A stretch of 64,000 nucleotides of DNA, from assembly GCA_963781585.1 (NCBI GenBank), contig CAWAGQ010000010.1:96001-160000 (forward strand). The letters run 5' to 3'. Below, one piece after another: positions 11,762-25,926 of the stretch. Below the pieces are notes generated by a model that had not been told where the DNA came from, searched no databases, and saw only the letters and a list, made by a program, of their open reading frames with translations. The stretch comes from an uncultured Gemmatimonadaceae bacterium (lineage in GTDB: Bacteria; Gemmatimonadota; Gemmatimonadetes; Gemmatimonadales; Gemmatimonadaceae). Position 1 is the first letter of the stretch, and each line of letters starts with the position of its first letter. A program made the position numbers and the translations under genes.

Positions 11762-11989
11762 CTAGACGCGCCAAGTGCCTGAGGGTTGCGGATTTCCGCT
11801 TCTCCGACCGGCGAGGCAGCCGCTCTCTCCGCCGTGGTGAGGCGACTGGCCAGCGCCGGGCTCCTGGGGAGGCAAGTTGTGGTATAAGGCCCGGATCAAG
11901 CAGTACGGACGGAAGCGGCTCGCCAATGGCGTGCGCCAGGCTGGCCAGCTTGCCGAGCGTGGTCCTTGTGGCGACCAGCGTCATACGGC

Positions 11990-12985
11990 ATGAGCATTAT
12001 TCGTTTCGAATTTCAGAATCCGTGGGTGCTGTTCCTCCTGGCCGCCGTTCCCGCCTGGTGGTGGTGGCGTCGGCGAGGGCGAGGGGGGGCGCACGCGATC
12101 GTCTTTTCGCGCGTTCCGGTTCTTGCCCGTGGCCCGCGGGCCGGTCGCGCTCTGGCGCGCCTGCTGGTGGCACTGCGGACGGTAGTGGTTGCCGGCTTCG
12201 TGATCGCGCTGGCGCGGCCGCGGGCGGCGGGTCGCATGGAGCAGACCAACAGCGAAGGGATCAACATCGTCATCGCATTCGATATCTCGAGCTCGATGCT
12301 GGCGGAGGATTTTCAGCCGCAGAACAGGCTCGAGGTGGCGCGGGAACGCGTCAAGCAGTTCATCACGATGCGGAGCAGCGATCGTATCGGCGTTGTGGCA
12401 TTCTCCGGAGAAGCGCTCACCCAGGTTCCGCTGACCACCGACTATCCCGTGCTGCTCGCGGCGGTGGACAATCTGCAGCCCGGACAGCTTCAGGACGGTA
12501 CGGCGATCGGCACGGCGATCGCGACGGCGGCGAATCGTCTGCGGGACGCTCCCGGCCGTTCTCGGGTCATGGTCCTCCTGACCGACGGCGTGAACAATCG
12601 CGGGTCGATCGATCCGCGCACCGCTGCGCAGGCGGCGGCGGCATTCGGCATCAAGATCTACACGATTGGCGTGGGCACCGAGGGGATGGCGCCGGTCCCG
12701 GTTTCAAGCGGGCCGTTCGGGTTGCGCTACGAGAATCGCCCGGTGGAGATCGACGATGCGTTGCTGACTGAGATCGCGCAGAAGACAGGCGGGCGGTATT
12801 TCCGGGCGCGGGATGCAGAAGCGCTGACGCGGATAACCGAGGAGATCGACCGGCTGGAGCGGACGCCGGTTCGGACGCGCGTTTATACCCGCTACGCGGA
12901 GCTGTACCGGTGGCCGCTGGCGGTAGGGCTGCTGGCCCTGCTGGCCGAACTGGGATTGGCGGCGTGGCGCGGGCCGCTCCCGTGA
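11990..12985 (+). CDS. batA: VWA-domain protein, BatA-like
   Basis: N-terminal BatA-type TM (FQNPWVL), LARP, MIDAS DISSSM, LLTDG, IYTIGVG. Confidence 0.8.
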   Translation: MSIIRFEFQNPWVLFLLAAVPAWWWWRRRGRGGAHAIVFSRVPVLARGPRAGRALARLLVALRTVVVAGFVIALARPRAAGRMEQTNSEGINIVIAFDISSSMLAEDFQPQNRLEVARERVKQFITMRSSDRIGVVAFSGEALTQVPLTTDYPVLLAAVDNLQPGQLQDGTAIGTAIATAANRLRDAPGRSRVMVLLTDGVNNRGSIDPRTAAQAAAAFGIKIYTIGVGTEGMAPVPVSSGPFGLRYENRPVEIDDALLTEIAQKTGGRYFRARDAEALTRITEEIDRLERTPVRTRVYTRYAELYRWPLAVGLLALLAELGLAAWRGPLP

Positions 12986-13005
12986 CGATCCGCGATCCCC
13001 GCGCC

Positions 13006-14046
13006 CTACAGCATCCCCCCCCGTCGCAGAAACCAGAGCAGCCCGATGCCTAACGCGAGCTGCACCACCAGCATGATCTCGAATCCGATCGGGTTCTGGG
13101 ACAGCGGAATGCGGGTGAAGTTCATCCCCCACATGCCGCTCACGACCACGAACGGGACCGACAGCGTTGCCACCACGGTCAGTCCCTTGGTCACCAGCCC
13201 CAGCCGGTTCGACACCTGGGACAGATAGCTCTCGAGCGTGCTGCTGAGGAGTTCGCGAAAGGTGTCGAGCGAGTCGTTGATCCTCAGCACATGATCGTAG
13301 ATGTCGCGAAAATAGAGCTGGACGTCCTGGGTGAGGTACTGTGACGGCCGATTGGCGAGCACGTTGAAAATCTCTCGCTCCGGCGCAAGGTACCGGCGCA
13401 ACGACAACACCATGCGCTTCACCGAGAAGATATCGCGGAGCGCCGCCTCGTCGAAGCTCCGGAACACGCGATCCTCCAGGCTGTCGGTGAACTCATCGAG
13501 CCGGTCCAGAATCGGGAAGTACGCGTCCACCGCGTCGTCCATGACCTGATGGGCGAGCCGGGCGTGGCCGCGCGCCAGCACGTCCGGATTGCGCGTTGCC
13601 AGGTCCACCACCGTCTCGACATGGGGGCTGCGGCCGCTGTGCACGGTGACCAGGTAGTTGGCACCAAGGAAGAAGTAGAGGTTGCGCGTCTCGAGGTCGT
13701 AGGGATCGTCGGTCGTCGTGTCGAGACTCAATACGCGCAGGATGATGAACAGGTAGCCATCGTACTCCTCCACCTTGGCGCGGCTGTTCGGGTGCAGCAC
13801 GTCCTCGATGGCCAGCGGATGGAACCCGAACACCTTTTCGAGCAACGCGCCCTGTTGTCGTACCGAACTGTCGATGTCCACCCAGAGCTTGCCCGCGCCG
13901 CCTCGCACGCACTCCATCAGGTCCTTGAGCGAGAGATCGCGGGCCAGCGTGCCCTCGCCGCCGGCGGGGATGAAGAACGAGCGCGGCAGCTTAATCGCTG
14001 CCGCGGGCGGCGAGGCGCCCGGTTCCGGAGGAGTCGGCGTGGTCAC
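13006..14046 (-). CDS. corA: CorA-family Mg2+/Co2+ transporter
   Basis: FHPLAIED, GMN motif between two C-terminal TM helices. Confidence 0.9.
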   Translation of the reverse strand: MTTPTPPEPGASPPAAAIKLPRSFFIPAGGEGTLARDLSLKDLMECVRGGAGKLWVDIDSSVRQQGALLEKVFGFHPLAIEDVLHPNSRAKVEEYDGYLFIILRVLSLDTTTDDPYDLETRNLYFFLGANYLVTVHSGRSPHVETVVDLATRNPDVLARGHARLAHQVMDDAVDAYFPILDRLDEFTDSLEDRVFRSFDEAALRDIFSVKRMVLSLRRYLAPEREIFNVLANRPSQYLTQDVQLYFRDIYDHVLRINDSLDTFRELLSSTLESYLSQVSNRLGLVTKGLTVVATLSVPFVVVSGMWGMNFTRIPLSQNPIGFEIMLVVQLALGIGLLWFLRRGGML

Positions 14047-14162
14047 GAATCAGCGCATTGGAGTGCGTCCGCCATCTGCCCATTCTCCTCCTGTCGGATG
14101 CTTGACGTCGACGTCGCGGCTCGCGGACCCGCCGCCGCCGAGTGCGACGAACCCGATCCAGA

Positions 14163-15378
14163 CTAGAATCGAAACGCCACCTTCACGCTCCGCTCCGACC
14201 CCTTGGCGCGCGCCGTCTTCGAGCGCGCGCCGGTGGTCGGCGAGCGGGAAGGTGTGCGTGACCAGCGACCCGACCGGGGCACGGCCACTCGCGATGAGAT
14301 CCGCCGCTTCGACGAAGGCATGTCCGGCCGCACCACCGTGTCCCTGTACACCATAGGCGAGCGTACCGCGAATCGTCAGTTCCTTCAACCACAACGGCGT
14401 CCAGTCGAGCCCCCGGAGCGTGCTGGCGTTTCCGATCAGTACGATCGTGCCGCCGGCGCGCGTGCAGCGCAATGCATCCTCCATCGCGCGCACGCTGCTG
14501 ACGCACACATACGTGGCATCGAATCCGCCCACCCCGGCGGGCCGTCCGATGATTGCCGGGAGGAGGCGCGTACCGGCCAGCTCGGCCAGCGCGCCCAGGT
14601 AGTCCCCGCGTGCGACGAACGTACGATGCGCGCCGAGGCGCGAGGCCAGTTCGGCCTGGAAGGGATGGCGAGCCACCACCGTCACCTCGGCGCGAGCGAG
14701 CTGCGCCAGAGCGTACGTGAGCAGGAGGCCCATCGAGCCAGCCCCGATCACCGCTACGCGGGACGGGTCGTCGGTGCCGGCGGCCCGCATCGCGTGGATA
14801 CAGCAGGCCAGCGGTTCGACCAGGACCGCTTCTTCATCGCTGATGCTGTCGGGCACCGGTACCAGCTGCGACACGTGCGCCACGAACTCCTCGCCCCAGC
14901 TTCCGCCAAGCGACCGCGTCGTACCGATGAACAGTCCCGGCGGCAGCACACCGTCCGTGAAGTGGATGCACCGCGAGTGCATTCCGGCAGCGCAGGCATC
15001 GCAGACGGGGCGGATGGCGCGCGGCTCGCAGCAGAGCAGGGGGTTTACGACGACCCGTTGGCCCTCGGCGGTCCCGCGGACGGCGCGACCGGTTTCCACG
15101 ATCGTTCCGACGTTCTCGTGCCCCAGTACGAAGGGGAACGACGAGAACGGTGACGACGACGGGCTGGCCTCGAGCGCGACGATGCCCAGGTCGCTCCCGC
15201 AGATGCCGCCAAGCCGGGTTCGAATTCGCACCCAGTCGTCCCCGGGCAGTGCCGGCGATTCCATCTCGGCATATCGGGTGCAGGCGTGCGGCCCGACCGT
15301 CAGGGCTGGCGAGAGACGCCCGGCAGCCAGGGTAACCAGGTAGGTGGGAATCGGCGCTGCAAAGCGGATCGCCTTCAC
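14163..15378 (-). CDS. Zn-dependent medium-chain dehydrogenase/reductase with apparent +1 frameshift near 14220
   Basis: GICGSD, GHE, four-Cys structural Zn cluster, GAGSMG; GTGA overlap with the kinase gene; typical ...SVKVAFRF* tail lies in the adjacent frame. Confidence 0.8.
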
Positions 15379-16313
15379 GGCCCGGCAACCGGCGACTTGC
15401 CCTGCACCGGGCCGGCGCCGTTCCCTTCGGGCACTACCACCCGGAGCGCCTGACGGAGACACCCCAGCAGCAACTCGGCTGATTGGGCGCGCCGATACTC
15501 GCCGTCGGTCTCGTAGGCCGGCGGCGCGGCGAACCGGAGCGAGAAGGTGCGGGATCGTTCGATGGAGACCTCGGGGTATCCGGCGTGCGTGCCGCGTGTC
15601 GCGGCCACGAATAACCTCAGGCGCTGCAGCGGGCGCGCGTCGAGAAACGAGACGGCGTCGAGCGCGCCGTCGGTGATCGACGCGTCCGGGGCGATCCGGA
15701 ATGAACCGCCGAAGTTGCGTGCGTTGGCCACCACCAGCATCAGGTGGGGCTTCGGACCGCGCCACGCCGGTGATCCGATATCGATGTCGGTGGCGCGATA
15801 GCGCGCGATCTGGCGGAGCGCGGAGTAGATGTAGAGCGCGTCCCCGCGCAGCCAGCCGATGCGGGTGACGTCTTCCAGGACCGCGACGTCGAGGCCGAAG
15901 CCAGCGATGTTGAGAAAGTAGCGATCCTCGATGGTGCCGACGTCCACCCGCCGGTCGGGGCCCTCGACGGCGAGGCGGGCGCTGCGGGCGACGTCGTGGG
16001 CCGGCGCCCCAGCGGTCTTCGCGAAGTCGTTCCCGGTCCCGCTGGCGATGAGCGCCAGTCGGCAGTCGGCGCCAGCGCGGAGCACCGCGTTGGCGACATT
16101 GCTCCAAGTGCCGTCGCCGCCGACCGCCACCAGCGTCGTGCAGCCCTCGCCGATCGCCCGGCGCGCCACGGCTTCTTCCCGGAGCGCCGGCGTGGTGACC
16201 CGCAGATCATCGACGCCTAAAGCGGCGAAAGCCTCGCGCACCCGTGGCAACGCCCGCGCCCCGCTGCCCCGGCCCGACGCCGGGTTCACGATGACGCAGA
16301 TCCGCTCCGGCAT
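15375..16313 (-). CDS. Diacylglycerol/sphingosine/ceramide kinase family protein (YegS/DgkB-like)
   Basis: NPASG, GGDGT, GTGNDFA, GFGLD, ETDGE motifs. Confidence 0.9.
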   Translation of the reverse strand: MPERICVIVNPASGRGSGARALPRVREAFAALGVDDLRVTTPALREEAVARRAIGEGCTTLVAVGGDGTWSNVANAVLRAGADCRLALIASGTGNDFAKTAGAPAHDVARSARLAVEGPDRRVDVGTIEDRYFLNIAGFGLDVAVLEDVTRIGWLRGDALYIYSALRQIARYRATDIDIGSPAWRGPKPHLMLVVANARNFGGSFRIAPDASITDGALDAVSFLDARPLQRLRLFVAATRGTHAGYPEVSIERSRTFSLRFAAPPAYETDGEYRRAQSAELLLGCLRQALRVVVPEGNGAGPVQGKSPVAGP

Positions 16314-17008
16314 CAGGCCGAGGCCGGGACCAGCGTCTCGAGGGGGTAAAACGTCTGCAGCCCGTCGCGCATCCAGAGTTCACGAAACGGTGTGGTGTTG
16401 AGGCCGTCGGGTTCGATGGCCGCGGTGAACCGGTGCCCGTGCAGCTCGATCGCGCCCCGCTCCTCCTCATTCTCGCTGAACGGCGCCGCCATGATGATGG
16501 TCGCCATGTACGCGCCGGAATCATCCCGCATGAACGACTGGTATCGGTGCTCGACGTTCTCCCAGCTGTAGTCGGTGATCCGCATGTCGAGGATCGGCGA
16601 CCCCTCGTGCGATGCCGAGATGCCGATCTGATGGTCGCCGCGGTCGAGGGCGAGATCGATGTCGTTCATGAAATGCGGGAGGTGCCACCGTTCGATCGCG
16701 TGTTCCCGCGAGGCGCTGGTAGTGGTGCCCAGGAGAAACGGGTAGAACGCCGCGCGGGGGAGGGGCGAGCCGCGCCCGACGCGGGGCGCCACGTGCACCG
16801 AGAGAATCAACTCGCCGTATTCTCCCACCGGCGAGTCGTGAAAGTCGAACGCCATCACCGAGAGCACGCTCTGTCCATGATGTGGTTCCACCGGATACAG
16901 AAACCGGGGGAGAATCTGCACGGCATTGGCGGTGGGGAACTCGAAAAAGCCGCCGATGGCGTGGCGGAAGTGGTACTGCACCACGCCGTTGTCCGTCCTG
17001 GTGCTCAC
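16313..17008 (-). CDS. Acetoacetate-decarboxylase-fold protein lacking any lysine
   Basis: DSPVGEYGELIL resembles the ADC-family G-x-Y-x-E segment; translationally coupled to both neighbours. Confidence 0.55.
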   Translation of the reverse strand: MSTRTDNGVVQYHFRHAIGGFFEFPTANAVQILPRFLYPVEPHHGQSVLSVMAFDFHDSPVGEYGELILSVHVAPRVGRGSPLPRAAFYPFLLGTTTSASREHAIERWHLPHFMNDIDLALDRGDHQIGISASHEGSPILDMRITDYSWENVEHRYQSFMRDDSGAYMATIIMAAPFSENEEERGAIELHGHRFTAAIEPDGLNTTPFRELWMRDGLQTFYPLETLVPASA

Positions 17009-18318
17009 AGGACGCCCTCGGCGCGCAGGACCTCGACCAGGATGGCGGCCCCTTCCTCGAGATCAGCCTCCGAGTGAGTGGCGGAGATCGAGATACGGAA
17101 GCGCGACTTGTGCTTCGCCACTGCCGGGTAGATGATCGGCTGCAGGTACAGGCCGGCGCGCTGCAGCGCCTGCGCGATGCAGAAGATCTTCCGGTCGTTG
17201 CGAATCATCACCGGGATAATCTGGGACGTGGACTCGCCCACGTCGACGCCGGCACTGGCGAGCAGGCGCCGCATGTACGACACGTTCGACCACAGCCGCT
17301 CGCGCAACGCGGGCTCGCGCTGCGCAATCCGCAGGGCCTCGAGTACACCGGCCGTGACCGCCGGCGACAGGGCGCACGAAAAGACGCGCGAGCGCGCGAA
17401 ACCCATCAGGTAGTTGTACAGACTGCGGGATCCGGCGATGCATCCCCCCATGCCGCCGAGCGCCTTGGAGAACGTGCCGATGTGGATGTCGATCTCATCC
17501 TCGAGGCCGAAGTGCTCCACGACCCCGCGCCCGTTGGCGCCGTAGACAAACGCCGAGTGCGCCTCGTCGATCATGACCCGTGCGCCGTGACGCCGGGCCA
17601 CTTCGACGATCTCGGGCAGGCGCGCCACATCGCCGTCCATGGAGTAGACCCCCTCCACGATGACCAGCCGCTTACCGCTGGTTCCCTTGAGCTTCCGGTT
17701 GAGCTCCTCGGGCTGGTTGTGCCGGAAGAACCGCGCATTCGCCTTGGACAGAATCGCGCCATCCACGATGCTGGCGTGTACGTTCTGATCCATGATGATG
17801 TGGTCTCCGGGACGCATCAGCGCCGCGATCAGCCCGACGTTGGTGCTGTAGCCGGTGGGGAAGATCATCACCGCTTCCTTGCGCTTGAACCGGGCGAGTT
17901 CCTGCTCGAGCGCCAGGTGAATGTCCATGGTCCCGCTCAGGATCGGCGACCCGGCCGCTCCCAGGCCATACTGGTCCAGGGCACCCTTCGCGGCCGCAAT
18001 CACTTCCGGACGGTAGGACAGGCCGAGGTAGTTGTAGGACGCGAGATTCAGCAGGCGGAGGCGCTGGTGGCGCAGTTGCTCCTCCAGCTGGATGCTCGGC
18101 GCCGGCGGCGTTGACATCGGCTGGGAGAACAGATAGTAGCCGTTGCCTCGCGCGTGACCGTACCACCACTCATCGTATGGATCGAAGATCGCGAAAAGAT
18201 CTTCGCTGGATGAGTAGTAGAAATTGCTGTAGTCGTAGTCGGCAAGGGCGCCGTTCGACTTCGTGGTCGCATATCGTTCCGCCTCGTCTGTTTTCAGCGG
18301 CCCGACTCGTGTGGCCAT
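17005..18318 (-). CDS. PLP-dependent alpha-oxoamine synthase, serine palmitoyltransferase-like
   Basis: SYNYLGL, HASIVDG, FRHN, EGVYSMDGD, DEAHS, GTFSKALG (PLP Lys); lipid-gene context, no bio genes adjacent. Confidence 0.8.
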   Translation of the reverse strand: MATRVGPLKTDEAERYATTKSNGALADYDYSNFYYSSSEDLFAIFDPYDEWWYGHARGNGYYLFSQPMSTPPAPSIQLEEQLRHQRLRLLNLASYNYLGLSYRPEVIAAAKGALDQYGLGAAGSPILSGTMDIHLALEQELARFKRKEAVMIFPTGYSTNVGLIAALMRPGDHIIMDQNVHASIVDGAILSKANARFFRHNQPEELNRKLKGTSGKRLVIVEGVYSMDGDVARLPEIVEVARRHGARVMIDEAHSAFVYGANGRGVVEHFGLEDEIDIHIGTFSKALGGMGGCIAGSRSLYNYLMGFARSRVFSCALSPAVTAGVLEALRIAQREPALRERLWSNVSYMRRLLASAGVDVGESTSQIIPVMIRNDRKIFCIAQALQRAGLYLQPIIYPAVAKHKSRFRISISATHSEADLEEGAAILVEVLRAEGVL

Positions 18319-18331
18319 GAGGAGTCTCCCT

Positions 18332-19213
18332 GTGAATTCTCGCTACTCGACTGGCATCGGCTCGACCGCAGCCCCCCCGACTCCGGGGTGGCTCAGTGCG
18401 TTCCGTGCCGTTCGCGGCGCGGTATTCCTGCTCGTCTTCTTCCTGTATCTGCTGGTCGGACTTGGACTGCCGCAGCGTGTGATCGTGTTCCCATTCCTCT
18501 GGATTTTTCCGAAACGCCGGGACCGGGTACTGGGACCCTGGATTCGGGCCCATGCGCGCATTACCCGCGCCCTGGCGCGATTCCCGGGCGGCGTACGTCT
18601 GGACATCCGGGGTACGTTGCCGCCCGAGTGCGGGATCGCGGTCATGAACCACCAGTCGGTGCTGGACGCCATGATCGCGCTGTGCGTGGCACGCGGTCCG
18701 CTTCCGTTGATCCCGGTGCGGACGCGATATCGGTGGGGAATGCCCGGCATTTCGCCTTTCCTGCGGGCGGCGCGATTCCCGTTCATCAGGCAGCAGCGCG
18801 CCACCGCCGACGCGGACCTGGCGGCCATCGAGGCCGAAGCCGAACGCGCCGCGCGTGGAGAGGCGATGATCTTCATTTTTCCGGAGGGCCACCGCACCCG
18901 GACCGGCGACATCGGGCCGTTCATGCCACGCGGGCTCCGGAGCTCGCTGAGGCGCGTCCACCGCCCCGTGTACTGCGTGGTCGGCGACGGAATGTGGCGC
19001 GTGCGGACGCTGGCCGATGTGTTCACGAAGCTCGCCGGAACGCGCGTCACGGTCCGGATCATCGGACCGTTCACCGCGCCGCAGGATGAGCAGGACATTC
19101 CCGGTTTCATCGCGTCGCTCCGGGACCGGATGGTGGCGACGCTGCGGGAATCGCGCGACAGGCCCACTTCGTCGACGCAAACAGATGCGGACTGGCAGCA
19201 GGCCGCCGGCTGA
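18332..19213 (+). CDS. PlsC-like lysophospholipid acyltransferase
   Basis: NHQSVLD (HX4D) and FPEGHR motifs; N-terminal TM; start is either GTG 18332 (AGGAG RBS) or ATG 18317. Confidence 0.85.
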   Translation: MNSRYSTGIGSTAAPPTPGWLSAFRAVRGAVFLLVFFLYLLVGLGLPQRVIVFPFLWIFPKRRDRVLGPWIRAHARITRALARFPGGVRLDIRGTLPPECGIAVMNHQSVLDAMIALCVARGPLPLIPVRTRYRWGMPGISPFLRAARFPFIRQQRATADADLAAIEAEAERAARGEAMIFIFPEGHRTRTGDIGPFMPRGLRSSLRRVHRPVYCVVGDGMWRVRTLADVFTKLAGTRVTVRIIGPFTAPQDEQDIPGFIASLRDRMVATLRESRDRPTSSTQTDADWQQAAG

Positions 19214-20183
19214 CGGGGCTGTGCGTGCGGCGCTGGCGCTGGGCCTCGATCGCCCCCCGGGAGCCGAGGCATGCGCGCTGGCTGCGCAGCTGGCGTCGGC
19301 CTTCGGAGACGCGACCATGGCAGTGGTACACTACGGGTCGCGGGCCCAAGGGCGGCCCACGCGCACCGAGAGTGCCTATGACTTCTTCGTCATCGTGCGC
19401 GAGTACGATTCGGCCTACCGGACGCTCCACCGCACCGCCGGCACCCACTACCGTCCTGGAGTCGCCGCTGCCCTGGCACGCGTGCTCCCGCCAAACGTGA
19501 TCTCGGTCGCCGACCGAAGCGGCGCCGGGCGGCGCGCCAAGTGCGCCGTGTTGTCCGAGCAGGACTTCCGCCGAGCCAGCTCCGAGCGTGCACGTGACCA
19601 TTTCGTGCGCGGCCGTCTCATGCAATACCTGACGCTGGCCTGGAGCCGCGATCCCGGAACCGCGCGCCTGGTGGCCGACGCCGTCGTCGCGGCGCGCGCC
19701 GGCACGTACGAATGGGTGCGTGCCTTTCTCCCCGAGCGCTTCGACGTCGATGAGTACTGTCGCACGCTCCTCGACGTTTCGTTCGCGCGCGAAATCCGCC
19801 CCGAGCCCCGGTCTCACGTCGTCGCGCTGTACGAGGCGCAGCGTGAGCTGATGCTCGCCATCTACGGACCGTGGCTCGAGCACCTCGCCCAGGGCGATCT
19901 CCTCGTCCGTGAAGGCGAGACGTATCGACACCGTGCGCCGCCTGACGCGCTCGACAGGGCGCGCATCCGTTTCTACTTTCGAAGCAGCAAAGCGCGCGCG
20001 ACGCTTCGCCTCCTCAAGCATGTGGTGTTGTACGAGGGATGGCTCGACTACATCCTCCATAAGGTTTCGCGCAGCACCGGGGAGCGAATCGAAGTGACCG
20101 AACGCGAGCGCCGCTGGCCGCTGATCTTCATGTGGCCGAAAATCCTTCGCTATCTGCGCTCCCGGCCGCAACGCCGCGACTGA
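19185..20183 (+). CDS. Pol-beta-type nucleotidyltransferase, Tam41/Mmp37-like (putative lipid cytidylyltransferase)
   Basis: HYGS...YDFFVIV nucleotidyltransferase signature; KCAVLS..DF...GRLMQ and LPERF...SF..EIR segments recall Tam41; start uncertain. Confidence 0.6.
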   Translation: MRTGSRPPADGAVRAALALGLDRPPGAEACALAAQLASAFGDATMAVVHYGSRAQGRPTRTESAYDFFVIVREYDSAYRTLHRTAGTHYRPGVAAALARVLPPNVISVADRSGAGRRAKCAVLSEQDFRRASSERARDHFVRGRLMQYLTLAWSRDPGTARLVADAVVAARAGTYEWVRAFLPERFDVDEYCRTLLDVSFAREIRPEPRSHVVALYEAQRELMLAIYGPWLEHLAQGDLLVREGETYRHRAPPDALDRARIRFYFRSSKARATLRLLKHVVLYEGWLDYILHKVSRSTGERIEVTERERRWPLIFMWPKILRYLRSRPQRRD

Positions 20184-20184
20184 G

Positions 20185-20940
20185 ATGAGTCCCGTCGAAA
20201 TCGCCGCCCTCGCGCTGGGCATCGCCGCGCTGGCCACAATGCCCGTCTTCGCGCTGCGCTCACGCGTGCGCTCGGTGGACGCCGACGTCGCGCGACGACC
20301 GACGACCATCTTCCTGGGCTTGTGGATACGCGACTGGTTCATGTGGATCCTGTCACCGATTGAGCGTCGTCTGGTGCACGCGCGCGTGTCGCCAGACGTC
20401 TTCAACTACCTCGGAGTCCTCTTCGGCGCCGCCGCCGGAATCGCCTTCGCGGTCCGGGAGCCATCTCTGGCCGCATGGATGATAGTGCTTGGCGGCGTTT
20501 CCGACATCCTCGACGGCAGAATTGCCAGAGCCCTCGGCGTGGCCTCCGAGTACGGCGCCTTCGTGGACTCGACGTTCGACAGATTCGCCGAGACCTTCAC
20601 GTTTCTCGGCGTGGCCTGGTTCCTGGCCCGCGTGCCATGGGGCGCGGTGGCCACCGCCTTCGCCCTCGGCGGCTCGCTGCTGGTCAGTTTTGCGCGCGCC
20701 CGCGGCGAAGCGCACGGAGTGAAGTTCACAGGCGGAATCATGCAGCGCGCCGAACGACTCGTCCTGCTCGCTCTTGCCGCATTCCTCGATCCCATGGTTA
20801 CCTCCCGCGCCGGGTGGCGGAGCGGCAGCGTGCTCGCCGCCACCGTAGGCCTGATCGGCCTCGGGGCGCTGGCAACCGCCGTGTACCGAACAGCGCGTAC
20901 TGCCCGCGAACTCTACCGTCAAGACTCACGGGTTCGGTAG
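20185..20940 (+). CDS. CDP-alcohol phosphatidyltransferase
   Basis: DILDGRIAR...SEYGAFVDSTFD signature; VSFARARGE...GIMQRAERL. Confidence 0.92.
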   Translation: MSPVEIAALALGIAALATMPVFALRSRVRSVDADVARRPTTIFLGLWIRDWFMWILSPIERRLVHARVSPDVFNYLGVLFGAAAGIAFAVREPSLAAWMIVLGGVSDILDGRIARALGVASEYGAFVDSTFDRFAETFTFLGVAWFLARVPWGAVATAFALGGSLLVSFARARGEAHGVKFTGGIMQRAERLVLLALAAFLDPMVTSRAGWRSGSVLAATVGLIGLGALATAVYRTARTARELYRQDSRVR

Positions 20941-21152
20941 GTTCGGAGCCGCGCCAACGCACGCTGGCACGCCCCGTCCGCAGGGCAGCCGGCAGAATCG
21001 TCGCCTCATCCCGTCCCGCACGCAAGACCGGGAGCCTTCCGACCGCCACGTTCCCTCAGGTAATCTCTGACAGCCTTGGGGGCGTCATCCCGACTTTACG
21101 AGTCGGCATTCGTCCCGATAGGTTCGCGCCCAACGCCCCACCAGACCGCGAG

Positions 21153-21872
21153 TTGACCCCGCCCTCCGCATCGGAAGTCCAGGAAGCCGTTCGCCTCCAC
21201 CGCATCGCCCGCCGGTTCGGCACACGATGGGCGCTGCGAGGCATTTCGATGAGCGTGGCTCCCGGCGAGGTGGTGGGGGTGATGGGGCACAACGGCAGTG
21301 GCAAGAGCACCCTGCTACGGGTGGTCTCAACGGTGCTGAAACCGAACGCAGGCGAGGGGTGGATCTACGGCCATCACCTGGTGCGGGAAGCCATGCAGGT
21401 CCGCCACCTCATCGGCTTTCTGGCGCACTCGCCGGGCCTCTACGACGATCTCAGCGCGCGGGAGAACCTGAGCTTCGCTGCCGCGATGCTGGATGTGGAC
21501 GCGGGACCGATCGACGCGACGCTGGAGCGGGTCGGCCTGTCGCGTGAGCGCGACGAGCGTGTGCGCGGGTATTCGGCCGGAATGCAGCGGCGGCTCGCGC
21601 TGGCGCGAGTCCTGCTCGGTCAGCCACGCCTGCTGCTGCTCGATGAACCATACAACAACTTCGACGCGCAGGGCATCGCGCTGGTGAACGAGGTGATACT
21701 CGAGACGCGTGATCGTGGGGGCGCGGCGCTGGTGGTGCTGCACGACCGTCGCCAGGGCGAAGTGGTGCTGGATCGGGTGATCGAGCTGACCAGGGGTGTG
21801 GTGTCCGGAGGCGAGGACCGGGAGGCGCCCGCTGTGCCGCGTCCCGCCGTCGTCGCGCAGGGAGCTCGTTAG
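21153..21872 (+). CDS. ccmA: Heme exporter ATP-binding subunit CcmA
   Basis: GHNGSGKST, YSAGMQRR, LLLDEP; first gene of ccm operon; start estimated. Confidence 0.85.
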   Translation: MTPPSASEVQEAVRLHRIARRFGTRWALRGISMSVAPGEVVGVMGHNGSGKSTLLRVVSTVLKPNAGEGWIYGHHLVREAMQVRHLIGFLAHSPGLYDDLSARENLSFAAAMLDVDAGPIDATLERVGLSRERDERVRGYSAGMQRRLALARVLLGQPRLLLLDEPYNNFDAQGIALVNEVILETRDRGGAALVVLHDRRQGEVVLDRVIELTRGVVSGGEDREAPAVPRPAVVAQGAR

Positions 21873-22559
21873 GTGGCGGTCCCGGCTGATCTGCGCCGCG
21901 TGCGCGCAATCATCTGGAAGGACCTCACCTCCGAGCGCCGGTCGAAGGCCGGCTTCAACGCCGTCACGTTTCTCGGGGTCCTGATCCTGCTCCTGTTCGG
22001 CTTCGCGCTGGGTCCCGACGCCGAGGCGCTGCGGGAGGCGGCGGCCGGCGCGCTCTGGCTCGCCATCCTGTTCGCCGGCGTCCTGGCGTTCAATCGCTCC
22101 TATCAGCTCGAGCTGGATGGAGGCGCACTGGAGCCGTTGCTCCTCTACCCGGCGCCACGATGGACCATCTTCGTCGGCAAGGTCGTCGCCAATCTCCTGT
22201 TCGTGCTACTCGTGGAGCTCATCGTGGTGCCCGTGGCCGCGATTCTCTTTCACGTCAGCGTATCGGGAGCGTGGCTCGCCCAAGCCGGGGTGTTGCTGCT
22301 CGGAAGCGTCGGGTTCGTGTCGCTCGGAACGTTCTACGCCGCAATGGCCAGCCGAAGCCGCGCCCGCGAAGTGCTCCTGCCGTTGCTGTTGTTCCCGATG
22401 CTGGTGCCCGTATTGCTGGCGGCGGCGGAGGCCTCGAAGGCCATGCTCTCGGGCGATCCCATGAACGAGGCCGGGGCCTGGATACGACTTCTGGCGGCAT
22501 TTGACGTAATCTTCGTGGTGGCATCGGTCTTTGCCTTCGATTCCGTGATCGAGGTCTGA
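21873..22559 (+). CDS. ccmB: Heme exporter permease CcmB
   Basis: WKDL..E.R, LLPLLLFP, six TM segments. Confidence 0.9.
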   Translation: MAVPADLRRVRAIIWKDLTSERRSKAGFNAVTFLGVLILLLFGFALGPDAEALREAAAGALWLAILFAGVLAFNRSYQLELDGGALEPLLLYPAPRWTIFVGKVVANLLFVLLVELIVVPVAAILFHVSVSGAWLAQAGVLLLGSVGFVSLGTFYAAMASRSRAREVLLPLLLFPMLVPVLLAAAEASKAMLSGDPMNEAGAWIRLLAAFDVIFVVASVFAFDSVIEV

Positions 22560-22560
22560 C

Positions 22561-23298
22561 ATGCGTGATGCGGTTCTTCTCCAGCCCGTGATTCCGGCGA
22601 CCACCTCGTCGCCGCGGCGCGGGACCTACGAGTGGCTCGGCGCCCTCGCGCTGGTGTCGTTGGTCGGCGCCCAACTCCTCGGCATCCTGACCAGTCCGCC
22701 GGACCGGGACATGGGCGACCTGCAGAAGATCATGTACGTCCACGTCCCGGCGGCGTGGAACGCCTTCATCGCCTACTTCGTCGTGGCGATCTCCAGCCTC
22801 CTCTATTTATGGAAGGGGCAAGAGCGACACGACCTGCTCGCTGCGTCAGCCGCCGAGGTCGGAGCGGTCCTGACGGGGCTCACGCTCGTGCTCGGTTCCA
22901 TCTGGGGCCGCCCCACCTGGGGCATCTGGTGGACCTGGGACGCGCGCCTGACGTCGACCGCCGTGCTGCTCCTGATCTTCGTGGGGTATCTGGCGCTGCG
23001 ATCGTTCGTGGATGACGCCGATCGCCGCGCTCAATGGAGCGCGGCGGTGGGCCTGCTTGGTGCGCTCAACGTCCCCATTGTGTACATGTCGGTACGCTGG
23101 TGGCGGACCATTCACCAGATTCAGTCGTCGCCGAACACGGTCGATCCCCGGTACGTGCGGGGTCTGCGGGCGAACGCGATCGCGTTCCTGCTGGTGCTCG
23201 TTTACTTCATATTGAAGCGGTATCGCGCCGCACAGCTCGAGCGGGCGGCGGAGCATCTGGCCGAGCGCGCGGCGCTTGGCCCGGAGGGGGCAGCATGA
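22561..23298 (+). CDS. ccmC: Heme exporter CcmC
   Basis: YVHVP; WWD motif WGRPTWGIWWTWDARLT; WWRTIHQ. Confidence 0.93.
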   Translation: MRDAVLLQPVIPATTSSPRRGTYEWLGALALVSLVGAQLLGILTSPPDRDMGDLQKIMYVHVPAAWNAFIAYFVVAISSLLYLWKGQERHDLLAASAAEVGAVLTGLTLVLGSIWGRPTWGIWWTWDARLTSTAVLLLIFVGYLALRSFVDDADRRAQWSAAVGLLGALNVPIVYMSVRWWRTIHQIQSSPNTVDPRYVRGLRANAIAFLLVLVYFILKRYRAAQLERAAEHLAERAALGPEGAA

Positions 23299-23450
23299 TT
23301 GACAACAGTCGGTTCATCATCGCCGCGTACACCGTGACCTGGGTCTGCTTCGTCGCGTACGCGGTGCGGCTCCACGTGGTCGCTCGCCGGGCTCGCGCGC
23401 AGTACGATGAAGCGGCGCGCGCGAGCGGTGAAACCGGGAGGGGAGAATGA
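23295..23450 (+). CDS. ccmD: CcmD small membrane protein
   Basis: 51 aa, FIIAAY TM then basic tail, ATGA overlaps with ccmC and ccmE. Confidence 0.7.
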   Translation: MIDNSRFIIAAYTVTWVCFVAYAVRLHVVARRARAQYDEAARASGETGRGE

Positions 23451-23905
23451 GCAACACGCGCGGACGACGCCGTGCCGCCATCGCGGTGGCGGTGGTGCTG
23501 GTGCTGGGGACGTTCGGCTTTCTGATCTGGGGCGGCATCGACCAGAACGTGGTGTTCTTCCTCACGCCGAAGGAGTTGGTGGCGCGCGGCAACGCAGCCT
23601 ATGATGTGCCGGTGCGTCTGGGGGGCCAGGTCGAACCCGGGTCGGTGAAGTGGGACGCGCAGCGGCTCGATCTCCGGTTCGTGCTCACCGACGGCACGGA
23701 TACGGTAGGCGTGCATTCCACCGGCGCGCCGCCGCAGATGTTCCGCGACGGCATGGGGGTCGTGGTGGAAGGCAAATACCGCCGTGACGGCGTGTTCGAG
23801 TCGACCAACCTGATGGTGAAGCACTCGAACGAATACCACCCTCCCAAGCCGGGTCAGATGCCAGAGGAGATGTACAAGTCTCTCATCCGGGAGAACAAGT
23901 CGTGA
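23447..23905 (+). CDS. ccmE: Heme chaperone CcmE
   Basis: VRLGG, VVVEG, KHSNEY (HxxxY). Confidence 0.93.
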   Translation: MSNTRGRRRAAIAVAVVLVLGTFGFLIWGGIDQNVVFFLTPKELVARGNAAYDVPVRLGGQVEPGSVKWDAQRLDLRFVLTDGTDTVGVHSTGAPPQMFRDGMGVVVEGKYRRDGVFESTNLMVKHSNEYHPPKPGQMPEEMYKSLIRENKS

Positions 23906-25926
23906 CGCGCCTGCTCGGATACGACGCGCTGGTGGTGGCGCTGGGGACCGTGGTCGTGGGCGCCATCGCCCTGCTGCTGGGCGCCTGGCGCCGCCGCGAC
24001 CAGTGGATGCAGGTGGGATACACCGCCGTCTTCGTCGCCTTCGGGCTGATCACCGTGTCAGTCCTCGCGATGGTTTACGCGCTGGTCTCGCACGACTTCA
24101 GCGTGAGCTACGTGGCGCAGGTCGGCAGTCGTGAGACGCCCCTCTTCTACACGGTCATTTCGTTGTGGGGAGCTCTCGAGGGATCGATCCTGCTCTGGGT
24201 GTGGGTGCTGTCGATGTACGCGGCGCTGGTGATCTATCAGCTGCGGGGCCGGCCAGGCCGGCTGGTGCCGTTTGCCGGCGGGACGCTGATGGTGATCGCG
24301 ACCTTCTTCCTGGTGCTGCTGGTCGGTCCGGCCAATCCCTTCGGTCTGGTGACGCCGGTGCTGGCGAACGGTCCGGGGCCGAATCCGCTGCTGCAGAATC
24401 ACATCCTGATGGCGGTGCACCCTCCGCTGCTGTACCTCGGCTACGTCGGGATGTCGGTGCCGTTTTCATTCGCCATGGGGGCGATGCTGTCCGGCGAGGT
24501 CGCGGACGACGGTTGGATTCGCCTGACGCGACGGTGGACGCTGGTGGCGTGGAGCTTTCTCTCGGCAGCGATCATCGCCGGGATGTGGTGGTCGTACGAG
24601 GTTCTGGGCTGGGGTGGGTACTGGGCGTGGGATCCGGTGGAAAACGCCTCGTTCATCCCCTGGCTGACGGCCACCGCCTACCTGCACTCGGTGATGGTGC
24701 AGGAGCGCCGGGGACTGCTCAAGTTATGGAACCTGAACCTGATCGTTGCCACGTTCGTGCTCACAATCCTCGGCACGTTCCTCACGCGCAGTGGCATTCT
24801 CTCATCGGTCCACGCGTTCACCCAGGGCACGATCGGTTACTACTTCCTCGGCTTCATCGCGCTGGCGCTGCTGACCTCGTTCGCGCTGGTGGCTGGCAAC
24901 TCCGACCGGCTGCAGGGCACTGGTTCACTCGACGCGGCGGTATCGCGCGAATCGGTGTTCCTGCTGAACAACCTGTTCCTCACCGCGTTCACCGTGACGG
25001 TGCTGGTGGGAACGCTCTACCCGCTGGTGGCGGAGGCGGCGCGAGGCGTGAAGGTCAGTGTCGGGGAGCCGTTCTTCAACAAGATGACACTGCCGATCTG
25101 CGCCGCGCTTCTCTTTCTGATGGGAGTGGGTCCGGCGCTGCCTTGGCGCCGTGCCTCGCGCGATGTGATCCGGCGGCAGCTCACGCCTCCCGCGATCGCG
25201 GCCGTCGCCGGGGCCCTGGTCGCCTTCGCGGTCGGTGCCCGGTCGGCGTACGCGCTCGCCGCCTACGGCTTCGCGGCGTTCGCGCTGACCGCCAACGTGC
25301 GCGAGTTCGTCTCGGGGACCATGGCGCGGCGCCGGGCGCATGGCGAGGCGCCATGGACGGCGCTGTTGCGTCTGGTCGGCGGGAATCGGCGGCGCCACGG
25401 CGGATACATCGCCCATCTTGGCATCATCTGTGTCACGTTAGGCATCGCGACATCGGCGACGTTCCGCAGCGATCGGGAAGCGACGCTCACGAAGGGACAG
25501 TCACTGACGCTGCGCGGCTACACGATCCGGCTCAACGACGTCTACGGGCGGGAGGAGCCCCAGCGCCAGGTGATCGCGGCCGGAGTGTCCGTGCTGCGCG
25601 GCAGCCAGGAGGTCGGACGCCTCGAACCGCGCATGAACTTCTATCCCACCTCGGAGCAACCGGTGCCCTCGCCGGCGGTGCGCAGCCGACCGTCGGGCGA
25701 CGTCTACGTGAACCTCATGGCGTTTGCGCAGGACGGCAGCAACGCCACGCTGCGCGTGATCGTGGAGCCTCTGGTTCCGTGGATCTGGTCGGGAGGGCTG
25801 ATCATCGTGCTCGGCGCACTGGTGTCGATGGGCGGGGCGAAGGAGCGCGTGCCCGCGCCGGTCGGAAGGCTGGCGTGGCGCCAGGTCCCGCCGGCCGTCG
25901 CCGAGCCGTTCGGGGGCGCGCCGTGA
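23902..25926 (+). CDS. ccmF: Cytochrome c heme lyase CcmF
   Basis: HPPLLYLGY; WSYEVLGWGGYWAWDPVENAS; SVHAF. Confidence 0.95.
   Translation: MTRLLGYDALVVALGTVVVGAIALLLGAWRRRDQWMQVGYTAVFVAFGLITVSVLAMVYALVSHDFSVSYVAQVGSRETPLFYTVISLWGALEGSILLWVWVLSMYAALVIYQLRGRPGRLVPFAGGTLMVIATFFLVLLVGPANPFGLVTPVLANGPGPNPLLQNHILMAVHPPLLYLGYVGMSVPFSFAMGAMLSGEVADDGWIRLTRRWTLVAWSFLSAAIIAGMWWSYEVLGWGGYWAWDPVENASFIPWLTATAYLHSVMVQERRGLLKLWNLNLIVATFVLTILGTFLTRSGILSSVHAFTQGTIGYYFLGFIALALLTSFALVAGNSDRLQGTGSLDAAVSRESVFLLNNLFLTAFTVTVLVGTLYPLVAEAARGVKVSVGEPFFNKMTLPICAALLFLMGVGPALPWRRASRDVIRRQLTPPAIAAVAGALVAFAVGARSAYALAAYGFAAFALTANVREFVSGTMARRRAHGEAPWTALLRLVGGNRRRHGGYIAHLGIICVTLGIATSATFRSDREATLTKGQSLTLRGYTIRLNDVYGREEPQRQVIAAGVSVLRGSQEVGRLEPRMNFYPTSEQPVPSPAVRSRPSGDVYVNLMAFAQDGSNATLRVIVEPLVPWIWSGGLIIVLGALVSMGGAKERVPAPVGRLAWRQVPPAVAEPFGGAP

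Follow-up and report, generated by a model that had tools for sequence, protein, structure and literature searches.

A conserved seven-gene cluster of Gemmatimonadaceae with a candidate phosphosphingolipid pathway

Introduction

The combination of a serine palmitoyltransferase (SPT) with a lipid kinase, a CpgC-like protein and a CDP-alcohol phosphotransferase is already known, on genetic grounds, from Caulobacter. The portions of PMC9393093 that deal with these genes give their order as cpgA (with a PgsA domain), cpgB (ceramide kinase) and cpgC, and describe CpgC as having 'no conserved domains' and as being needed beyond ceramide phosphate; in a corresponding portion of PMC11324152, CC_1161 is credited with an InterPro domain of CDP-diacylglycerol (CDP-DAG) synthases and might form an NDP-activated ceramide. 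Here we describe a cluster of seven genes in a 64,000-nt stretch of DNA from an uncultured Gemmatimonadaceae bacterium (assembly GCA_963781585.1, contig CAWAGQ010000010.1, here C10:96001-160000), which we call the window; the source genome measures 5.7 Mb in 17 contigs and is 93.5% complete. Three of the seven genes look like a counterpart of the Caulobacter Cpg module, and on balance the cluster as a whole probably encodes a phosphosphingolipid route leading from a long-chain base or ceramide phosphate through a CDP-lipid to an inositol-phosphate head group.

A large sphingolipid locus is also present on a 358-kb plasmid of Roseomonas mucosa (NZ_CP147881.1, positions 268000-300000). It contains genes for an acyl carrier protein (ACP), an SPT, a fatty acyl-AMP ligase, an SDR, LptF/G paralogues and a 385-aa GNAT protein, which we assumed to be the bCerS of this locus, together with a sterol-desaturase-family gene, glycosyltransferases and two NTP-transferase-type genes. 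One of its operons encodes a CDP-alcohol phosphatidyltransferase, a DAGK-family kinase and a 302-aa hypothetical protein, an order that matches cpgA-cpgB-cpgC as given in the portions of the Caulobacter work mentioned above. The 302-aa protein was equated with Caulobacter CpgC by gene order and published descriptions, not by sequence.

Little is known of the membrane lipids of Gemmatimonadota and Vicinamibacterales, both of them abundant in soil, and a full-text literature search found no paper on the present gene combination or on Gemmatimonadota sphingolipids. Inositol-phosphate sphingolipids, the likely end-product class of the cluster, are made in Bacteroides as inositol phosphoceramide; there the AUR1-like BT_1522 (PAP2-type) moves phosphoinositol from phosphatidylinositol (PI) to ceramide (PMC9246714).

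Organization of the cluster

The seven genes are densely packed between positions 14050 and 20940 of the window (~6.9 kb) and form two divergent operons.

14050..15378, minus strand: Zn-dependent medium-chain dehydrogenase of the polyol/threonine-dehydrogenase branch (442 aa, GTG start)
15375..16313, minus strand: YegS/DgkB/BmrU-family lipid kinase (312 aa)
16313..17008, minus strand: acetoacetate decarboxylase (ADC)-fold protein without conserved lysine (231 aa)
17005..18318, minus strand: serine-palmitoyltransferase-like alpha-oxoamine synthase (AOS; 437 aa, with an aromatic-rich N-terminal extension of ~65 aa)
18319..18331: spacer of 13 nt between the divergent start codons, read from the sequence
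18332 (or 18317)..19213, plus strand: PlsC/LPLAT-type acyltransferase (293 aa)
19185..20183, plus strand: Tam41-fold cytidylyltransferase-like protein without an annotated family (332 aa)
20185..20940, plus strand: CDP-alcohol phosphotransferase of the phosphatidylinositol-phosphate synthase (PIPS) type (251 aa)

A first-pass annotation of this DNA had named the same seven genes as two tightly coupled divergent operons; all are present in the order and orientation claimed, the tight coupling is real, and each of its gene-family calls was correct. The cluster lies where it was placed and its right end stands, but the left end had been set at 14163, whereas the dehydrogenase frame reaches 14050 (homologues of the dehydrogenase stop aligning at 14194).

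On the minus strand, the synthase and ADC-fold genes overlap by 4 nt, the ADC-fold and kinase genes by 1 nt, and the kinase stop and the dehydrogenase GTG by 4 nt; to judge from these overlaps, the ADC-fold gene is translationally coupled to both the synthase and the kinase. The divergent start codons are at most 13 nt apart. The acyltransferase GTG at 18332 has an AGGAG 7 nt before it, and if the acyltransferase started instead at the ATG at 18317, which would overlap the synthase ATG within CATG, the gap would be zero.

Conservation and distribution

When one genome per species was scanned, 277 stretches proved to code for a relative of the 231-aa ADC-fold protein. The best 80 of these loci were used for a synteny survey, in which linkage was counted only for loci with enough sequence on the relevant side ('with room'). 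They belong to Gemmatimonadaceae/Gemmatimonadales, to Vicinamibacterales or 'Solibacteraceae', and to three metagenome-assembled genomes (MAGs) labelled Acidimicrobiia. The synthase/ADC-fold/kinase core is also found in a MAG that bears the label Gemmatimonas aurantiaca (L080). Linkage to the ADC-fold gene was as follows.

Synthase: 78/78 loci with room, always adjacent
Kinase: 77/77 loci with room, always adjacent
Dehydrogenase: 62/70 loci with room
Acyltransferase: 55/67 loci with room
332-aa Tam41-fold protein: 52/64 loci with room
CDP-alcohol transferase: 51/63 loci with room

All seven genes occur in 45 of the best 80 loci, and because all 45 keep the same order and orientation the arrangement is not due to chance. 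The genes outside the cluster vary by lineage (aconitase, a class I Glu/Gln-type tRNA synthetase, methylmalonyl-CoA mutase and others), so the conserved unit is the six or seven cluster genes themselves. At the protein level, homologues of the ADC-fold protein are 62-97% identical to it in the 120 best of 1395 matches, the few named ones among those 120 being Gemmatimonadaceae and Acidobacteria MAGs.

Within the phylum Gemmatimonadota, the ADC-fold gene serves as a marker for the cluster and was found in 25 of 251 sampled genomes: 8/52 in the family to which the window belongs, plus the window genome, and 16/37 in a second family that belongs to the same class, where several of the carriers are single-contig genomes. 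It is missing from all 161 genomes of ten other families of the phylum. This limited distribution, together with cdsA and a canonical PIPS elsewhere in the genome, points to a specialised rather than a housekeeping role. The cluster of the second family consists of six genes and lacks the dehydrogenase; these genomes do encode a 37-40% identical dehydrogenase elsewhere, near suf genes and xanthine-dehydrogenase-type genes, a context that is uninformative.

Some loci (L005, L008, L010, L011, L020) are variants in which the core of synthase, ADC-fold and kinase genes stands without the rightward trio. Neighbours of such variant cores include sugar-nucleotide-type genes (DegT, two UDP-sugar dehydrogenases, an epimerase, a GFO/IDH/MocA oxidoreductase and a hexapeptide acyltransferase), a PAP2 phosphatase with a GT4 glycosyltransferase, the PAP2 gene adjoining the core in L011, and a fatty-acid/sphingolipid-type hydroxylase. 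This gene content suggests that the variant loci put alternative head groups on the same lipid core. It fits a modular design in which the invariant synthase/ADC-fold/kinase core would supply a lipid phosphate whose head group is then completed by exchangeable modules.

The synthases of three loci from MAGs labelled Vicinamibacterales, Acidobacteria or Solibacteraceae (L013, L025, L044) nest within the Gemmatimonadota clade of the synthase tree (99/98), a position that suggests transfer of the cluster between the two phyla.

The Tam41-fold protein and its link to the Cpg module

Pfam and NCBIfam assign no family to the 332-aa protein. Even at E up to 5, Pfam gave two weak matches (DUF2267 and Polbeta) and the Tam41 model was not matched; no Pfam domain is recorded on its homologues among the 120 matches listed, and a profile search of the family against PDB sequences at E up to 10 gave no match. 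A structural model computed from 25 sequences (pLDDT 87.5) was compared with solved structures using Foldseek, and the top five matches are all Tam41 (6ig4, 7ecd, 6ig2), with E values from 2.6e-8 to 1e-6 and TM scores up to 0.58/0.70 over ~280 columns; the next fold, an aminoglycoside nucleotidyltransferase, has a TM of 0.27. As modelled, the protein has the Tam41 CDP-DAG-synthase fold, made up of nucleotidyltransferase (NTase) and winged-helix domains; the first-pass annotation had called it a nucleotidyltransferase.

Tam41 is the peripheral-membrane CDP-DAG synthase of mitochondria. The protein of the window shares with Tam41/TAMM41 (PDB 6ig4, 6ig2; bacterial 7ecd) the fold of the whole chain and an NTase-type G-S...D motif, and it has a basic C-terminal helix region that may correspond to the Tam41 one. 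In the 332-aa family the G-S...D motif belongs to a conserved H-Y-G-S...D-F-F motif near the N-terminus, and alignment and model agree on a conserved Arg/Trp-rich helix region at the C-terminus; Tam41, according to the relevant part of PMC7018664, binds membranes through a basic C-terminal amphipathic helix. The two differ in that sequence identity is 12-14% and in that the substrate proposed for the window protein is a sphingoid lipid phosphate, that of Tam41 being phosphatidate.

The family profile of the 332-aa protein aligns with the Roseomonas 302-aa protein at an hhalign probability of 99.0 (E 3.5e-18, 271 columns). In the reverse direction, a tblastn search of the whole source genome with the Roseomonas protein found the 332-aa gene as its sole match. 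Because the 332-aa family is homologous to the protein in the CpgC position of the Roseomonas locus, and the reverse search finds this gene alone, the kinase, the Tam41-fold protein and the CDP-alcohol transferase look like the counterpart of the Cpg module.

The comparison can be extended to the other genes. The window cluster shares with Caulobacter (cpgA/CC_1159, cpgB/CC_1160, cpgC/CC_1161) and with the Roseomonas locus an SPT, a DAGK-family kinase, a CDP-alcohol phosphotransferase and an unannotated protein, and the NDP-activated ceramide suggested in the portion of PMC11324152 cited above is the very mechanism proposed for the window cluster. The differences are as follows. The window transferase is of the PIPS type, as against the 364-aa type of Roseomonas, and the two are alike in the motif region alone (E 4e-4); the kinases are barely alike; the window cluster adds ADC-fold, PlsC-type and Zn-dependent dehydrogenase genes; and the phyla differ. 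Nor was a homologue of a bCerS-type GNAT, a CerR-type SDR, a dedicated ACP or an acyl-AMP ligase found in the window genome. In tblastn searches of the whole genome at E 1e-5 with proteins of the Roseomonas locus, the 385-aa GNAT protein, a 316-aa protein and the ACP had no match, no homologue of the acyl-AMP ligase was found, and the SDR gave a single 157-residue Rossmann match. The first-pass annotation had recognised no bCerS, CerR or ACP in the window.

What is new, relative to Caulobacter, is the phyla, the PIPS-type transferase, the lack of detectable bCerS-, CerR- and ACP-type genes and the PlsC-type and ADC-fold members. The Tam41 fold predicted for the 332-aa protein would in addition give the CpgC-type step a concrete mechanism. 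Compared with Bacteroides, the window cluster encodes a kinase, a cytidylyltransferase and a CDP-alcohol transferase and has no PAP2 gene.

The synthase

The synthase matches PF00155 with 188.5 bits. Its best match in the PDB is the SPT of Sphingobacterium multivorum (1e-87, 297.9 bits), followed at ~244 bits by Sphingomonas-type SPTs and Thermus BioF/Kbl; Kbl reaches 219 and E. coli BioF 187. Residues of the S. multivorum SPT that are identical in the synthase are H138, D210, H213, T241, S243, the PLP lysine K244, the A79-G80-S81 loop and a C-terminal Arg; Tyr stands in place of N52 and Val in place of M271. Other SPTs, we presume, typically have the first motif in its SYNYLG form. The active-site residues compared here (S185 was not among them) are those named in the relevant part of PMC10196870, where the Ala-Gly-Ser loop is described as holding the substrate carboxylate through water.

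A tree of 22 rows was built from 14 of the 19 alignment rows (L026, L027, L042, L055 and L081 were omitted, and L075 had been dropped earlier for an aberrant frame) and eight references. Seven of these were labelled by NCBIfam cut-offs (the SPTs of Prevotella and Roseomonas, three Kbl, one BioF and one HemA), and the eighth is a RedN-like domain. By that standard the Prevotella (659.7) and Roseomonas (613.2) SPTs both pass SPT models. The cluster synthases form one clade (100/99) on a long stem (1.68). This clade is sister to the Prevotella and Roseomonas SPTs (95/90) and is split from Kbl, BioF and HemA at 94/90, so that the synthase groups with SPTs with moderate support. The first-pass annotation had proposed comparing the synthase with SPT, BioF, Kbl and capnine synthase, and had held that a BioF or Kbl identity would refute its reading; in the tree with these eight references the synthase sides with the SPTs against BioF and Kbl, and that refutation does not arise.

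The only other AOS of the genome is a true Kbl on contig C3, which scores 490.2 against the cut-off of 460 and lies beside a Tdh-like Zn-dependent alcohol dehydrogenase as a tdh-kbl pair. No bioB above the cut-off was found in the 93.5%-complete genome.

The transferase and the head group

The transferase matches PF01066 (48.8 bits). Its best NCBIfam models are archaetidylinositol-phosphate synthase (127.1 against a cut-off of 180) and PIPS (99.4 against 170), followed by the BT1523 type (94.4 against 350), with pgsA and pssA at ~21-24 bits; the best PDB match is M. tuberculosis PgsA1 (6h53, 8.8e-17). In the alignment to PgsA1 the DX2DGX2AR...G...D...D signature is kept, as are the equivalents of R94 and R137.

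A more canonical relative lies elsewhere in the same genome: at C4:949258-951447, outside the window, MIPS is directly beside a canonical PIPS-like gene. Renibacterium PIPS matches this MIPS-adjacent copy at 1.7e-24 and the cluster copy at 7e-14, and the two copies are 32% identical; cdsA is also in the genome. On these comparisons we regard the cluster transferase as an extra, divergent PIPS paralogue. Since it is PIPS-like and MIPS is in the genome, inositol phosphate is our best guess for its acceptor. The first-pass annotation had left the head group general, and it can now be narrowed to this candidate. With the PIPS pathway (M. tuberculosis PgsA1, Renibacterium PIPS, and Bacteroides BT_1523 with MIPS BT_1526) the cluster shares the signature, the key arginines and a MIPS in the genome, but the cluster copy falls below the cut-offs, is not MIPS-adjacent, carries Y133F and P153A, and has CDP-ceramide rather than CDP-DAG as its proposed donor.

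Co-occurrence with MIPS was tried as a test of the head group and set aside: all 25 carriers of the marker have MIPS, but so do 235 of the 251 sampled genomes of the phylum, a tally that includes three genomes flagged as unpublished (G057, G182 and G157). Inositol phospholipids may be a general trait of Gemmatimonadota.

The ADC-fold protein

No Pfam match was obtained for the ADC-fold protein of the window itself, although PF06314 is precomputed on many of its homologues. Its AlphaFold model (pLDDT 89.3) has Sbi00515, MppR and acetoacetate decarboxylase as top Foldseek matches (E ~1e-10, TM 0.57-0.67), so the 'ADC-fold' label of the first-pass annotation was right; that annotation's scheme had given the protein no role, though its gene is one of the three invariant core genes. 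A profile search of the family against solved structures gave no sequence-level match, and the protein atlas entry reads 'ADC family' only.

To follow the catalytic lysine, close relatives were combined with distant ones from a search of 1.84 billion representatives (264 at E<=0.001). No invariant or near-invariant Lys is present in 21 close relatives, nor in 18 close and distant full-length relatives; the position of the ADC catalytic lysine was not mapped onto a solved ADC, its absence being judged from the family alignments. The Schiff-base chemistry of known ADC members is therefore unlikely in this family, as far as alignments can tell. Close relatives have conserved His- and Glu-rich motifs, of which, once distant relatives are added, one Glu and one His alone remain near-invariant. 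Compared with the ADC superfamily (ADC, MppR, Sbi00515), the cluster protein thus has the same double-barrel fold but neither a conserved Schiff-base lysine nor a sequence-level match, and its gene is fixed beside an SPT-like gene. A literature search found no paper with both 'acetoacetate decarboxylase' and 'oxoamine synthase'.

In a complex prediction, the synthase/ADC-fold pair scored 0.50, against 0.00 for the best of three controls; at least 87% of contacts are common to the runs, and the partner has a pLDDT of at least 88. Among 157 solved complexes, 116 attain the mark that we use for such predictions, as do 2 among 215 mismatched pairs; at <=0.60 it is attained by only 18 of these solved complexes and by both of the passing mismatches. 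The prediction lends weak support to the idea that the two proteins may bind each other.

Seven long fused ADC-fold proteins were seen, five with an aminotransferase domain and three of these also with DAGK, all of them in single-member clusters. Because the second-family genes share a frame and are one stop apart, these fused forms may be read-through gene calls, and they were not used as evidence. Second-family genomes also have one or two extra ADC-fold copies outside the cluster (G249:C1:1447560-1448225, locus L098; also G113, G117, G159 and G224). The L098 copy lies between an ECF-type sigma factor gene and a large open reading frame without a family, followed by a methyltransferase, a setting that is uninformative.

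The kinase, the dehydrogenase and the acyltransferase

The kinase matches DAGK_cat (88.9 bits) and YegS_C (80.6 bits) in Pfam, scores above the cut-off of TIGR00147 (128.9 against 118.65) and has the GGDG motif. The acyltransferase matches PF01553 with 48.1 bits against a cut-off of 23. It has an N-terminal hydrophobic helix, an HX4D motif (NHQSVLD) and a FPEGHRT motif, and its NCBIfam matches, to OlsA and AGP acyltransferase, are weak.

The dehydrogenase matches ADH_N (76.0 bits) and ADH_zinc_N (65.5 bits). Its best NCBIfam model, IolM, gives 114 bits, far below the cut-off of 450, and in the PDB it comes closest to ketose reductase 1e3j (1.5e-26) and to xylitol dehydrogenase. The 3' tail of the gene, 14050-14193, consists of ~48 codons without a counterpart in homologues, is glycine-rich and ends 4 nt from the CorA start; it may reflect a lost stop or an assembly indel. 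Elsewhere in the genome (C4:777368-780691, outside the window) the uppS-cdsA-dxr region is broken into several frames, cdsA over three and uppS over two. Since uppS, cdsA and dxr are normally essential, these breaks are taken to be local assembly indels and not pseudogenes, and they call for caution over the odd 3' end of the dehydrogenase.

Proposed pathway

Taken together, the seven genes would form one self-contained route to a phospholipid built on a long-chain amino-alcohol base and not on glycerol. The SPT-like synthase would form a 3-keto long-chain base by condensing a fatty acyl thioester with an amino acid, which is most likely serine. The ADC-fold protein would work with the synthase or on its product, whether as a partner subunit or as a processing or N-acylating enzyme. 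Where present, the dehydrogenase would most likely reduce the 3-keto group, or else modify a polyol head group. The kinase would phosphorylate the C1 hydroxyl of the base or ceramide. A second acyl chain would be added by the PlsC-type acyltransferase, perhaps on the phosphorylated base, since the latter resembles lysophosphatidate, the normal substrate of PlsC. With CTP, the Tam41-fold enzyme would convert the lipid phosphate into a CDP-lipid ('CDP-ceramide'), whose lipid phosphate the PIPS-like transferase would move onto MIPS-made inositol phosphate to yield an inositol-phosphate phosphosphingolipid; a phosphatase would then trim the product.

That the kinase is invariant and the dehydrogenase is not speaks for serine or another hydroxy amino acid: without reduction, the sole hydroxyl would be that of the amino acid side chain, hence a serine- or threonine-type substrate. 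N-acylation may fall to the PlsC-type protein, to the ADC-fold protein or to some enzyme whose gene lies outside the cluster.

Computation has given the protein families and folds, the gene linkage, the synthase tree, the homology with the Roseomonas protein and the list of genes that the genome has or lacks; from these we infer all substrates, the sequence of steps and the product, and likewise what the ADC-fold protein, the dehydrogenase and the acyltransferase do. We hold the phosphosphingolipid route as a whole to be somewhat probable, and each of its details to be less so. A bolder version, in which CDP-ceramide or a CDP-long-chain base is a real intermediate formed and used by the Tam41-fold enzyme and the PIPS paralogue, and in which the ADC-fold protein is a new kind of sphingolipid enzyme, either the missing N-acyltransferase (a ceramide synthase of a third, unrelated fold) or an obligatory partner of a bacterial SPT, is doubtful. 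Inositol phosphoceramide would on that version be reached by a path that differs from the PAP2/AUR1 route known in fungi and Bacteroides. The logic proposed in the first-pass annotation has been strengthened for condensation, phosphorylation, CDP activation and head-group transfer by the Tam41 fold, the Roseomonas homology and the grouping with SPTs. The keto reduction that it assigned to the dehydrogenase is not supported as an obligatory step, and the PlsC-like enzyme is no more than a candidate for the acylation that it proposed.

Several observations weigh against the phosphosphingolipid route. That dehydrogenase is unlinked or absent in 8 of the 70 loci with room and in the second family. 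The synthase falls below every curated NCBIfam equivalog cut-off, those of the SPT models included (NF047600, 361.1 against 640; NF047599, 334.2 against 500; NF047603, 275.5 against 670), and its top NCBIfam score is that of the bioF model, 368.8, yet this too is below its cut-off of 426.45; the Kbl model gives 337.7 against 460. It is also 38-43% identical to many plasmid AOS subfamilies, at about equal distance from each. Because the references are few (eight) and the branches long, the support of the tree is moderate only. The best PDB match of the kinase is the diacylglycerol kinase DgkB (2qv7, 1.4e-25), and its similarity to the kinase of the Roseomonas locus is slight (E 2e-5, ~100 residues).

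The later steps are open to similar objections. The transferase lies below the curated PIPS cut-offs and has F for Y133 and A for P153 (PgsA1 numbering); according to the PgsA1 paper, Y133F is active and P153V lowers the affinity for inositol phosphate. MIPS, being so widespread in the phylum, does not discriminate, and the ADC-fold protein is without assigned chemistry. Finally, the rightward trio is missing beside the core in 12 loci with room, and a Tam41-like profile search of five trio-less genomes found it nowhere in any of the five, which are MAGs of unknown completeness. The absence of the trio there suggests that the core can work without CDP activation.

Alternative explanations

The strongest alternative is an amino-lipid not based on serine, in which the synthase uses another amino acid (glycine, alanine, threonine or cysteate) or releases a beta-keto acid that the ADC-fold protein decarboxylates or processes in some other way, with reduction, phosphorylation and head-group transfer to follow. 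Kbl-type enzymes do release a 2-amino-3-keto acid. The failure of the synthase at all SPT cut-offs, its own long stem (1.68) and the fixed position of the ADC-fold gene beside it are in keeping with such a product, and in crystals, according to the relevant part of PMC10196870, SPT itself takes Gly, Ala, Thr and homoserine. Both the best solved relative of the synthase and its sister group are SPTs, however, and the lack of a conserved lysine leaves the ADC-fold family without a Schiff-base decarboxylase mechanism; loci without the dehydrogenase would, moreover, still need a hydroxyl for the kinase, which only a serine- or threonine-type side chain would give. We consider this alternative unlikely.

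Two separate functions might instead lie side by side: a paralogous rightward glycerolipid route, from lysophosphatidate through phosphatidate and CDP-DAG to PI phosphate, that would supply a special pool of PI, and a leftward operon for an unrelated amino-lipid or base phosphate. PlsC, Tam41 and PIPS are each known to act on glycerolipids (as stated in part of PMC7018664), DgkB is the best solved relative of the kinase, and the 12 loci with the leftward core alone, with the Tam41-like profile in 0/5 genomes, agree with a division of this kind. Yet cdsA is already present in the genome, as is a more canonical PIPS next to MIPS, and the operons stand head-to-head in 45/45 seven-gene loci from two families of the phylum and Vicinamibacterales MAGs. 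The only recognisable sequence relative found for the Tam41-like protein, furthermore, belongs to a sphingolipid locus, where its neighbours are a DAGK-family kinase and a CDP-alcohol transferase. Such a division of the cluster appears rather improbable to us.

Synthesis of a small signalling molecule or secondary metabolite, such as an autoinducer of the alpha-hydroxyketone or amino-ketone kind that a CqsA-like synthase and a dehydrogenase would produce, is very improbable. CqsA-type and RedN/PigH-type enzymes do belong to the same superfamily, and a prodiginine-cluster AOS domain is among the plasmid matches, but the synthase scores 206 with the CqsA model, whose cut-off is 428. Lipid-handling enzymes account for five of the seven genes, the acyltransferase and the transferase have membrane-spanning segments, and no regulator, receptor, polyketide synthase or nonribosomal peptide synthetase gene is linked to the cluster.

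That the synthase is a housekeeping BioF or Kbl lying among lipid genes by chance, a candidate suggested by the bioF model giving its highest score, is close to refuted, since that score and the Kbl score are below their cut-offs, the genome has no bioB above the cut-off and keeps a true Kbl with its Tdh-like neighbour elsewhere, the cluster synthases form a clade apart from both enzymes, and the linkage to the ADC-fold gene and kinase is invariant. What probability remains falls to explanations that we have not thought of.

If the phosphosphingolipid route is correct, part of the Gemmatimonadota and Vicinamibacterales lineages makes sphingolipid-type phospholipids, and bacterial ceramide-type lipids would have arisen with yet another set of enzymes, without bCerS, CerR or ACP. 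The activation step of the Caulobacter ceramide-phosphoglycerate pathway would gain a candidate, a Tam41-fold cytidylyltransferase making CDP-ceramide. Lipid synthesis would likewise gain a link to a lysine-less branch of the ADC fold. At 6.9 kb the cluster is small, and it is self-contained, and so movable into a heterologous host.

Genomic setting

The G+C content of the window is 65-71%. A consensus promoter scan of positions 13900-21300 gave 0 sites against 0.8 expected; there are six terminator-like sites against 3.0 expected, none of them at the gene ends that matter. The genes flanking the cluster are ordinary: CorA and a BatA/VWA protein on the left (11966-14046), and the cytochrome c maturation set ccmA, B, C, E and F on the right (21200-25926).

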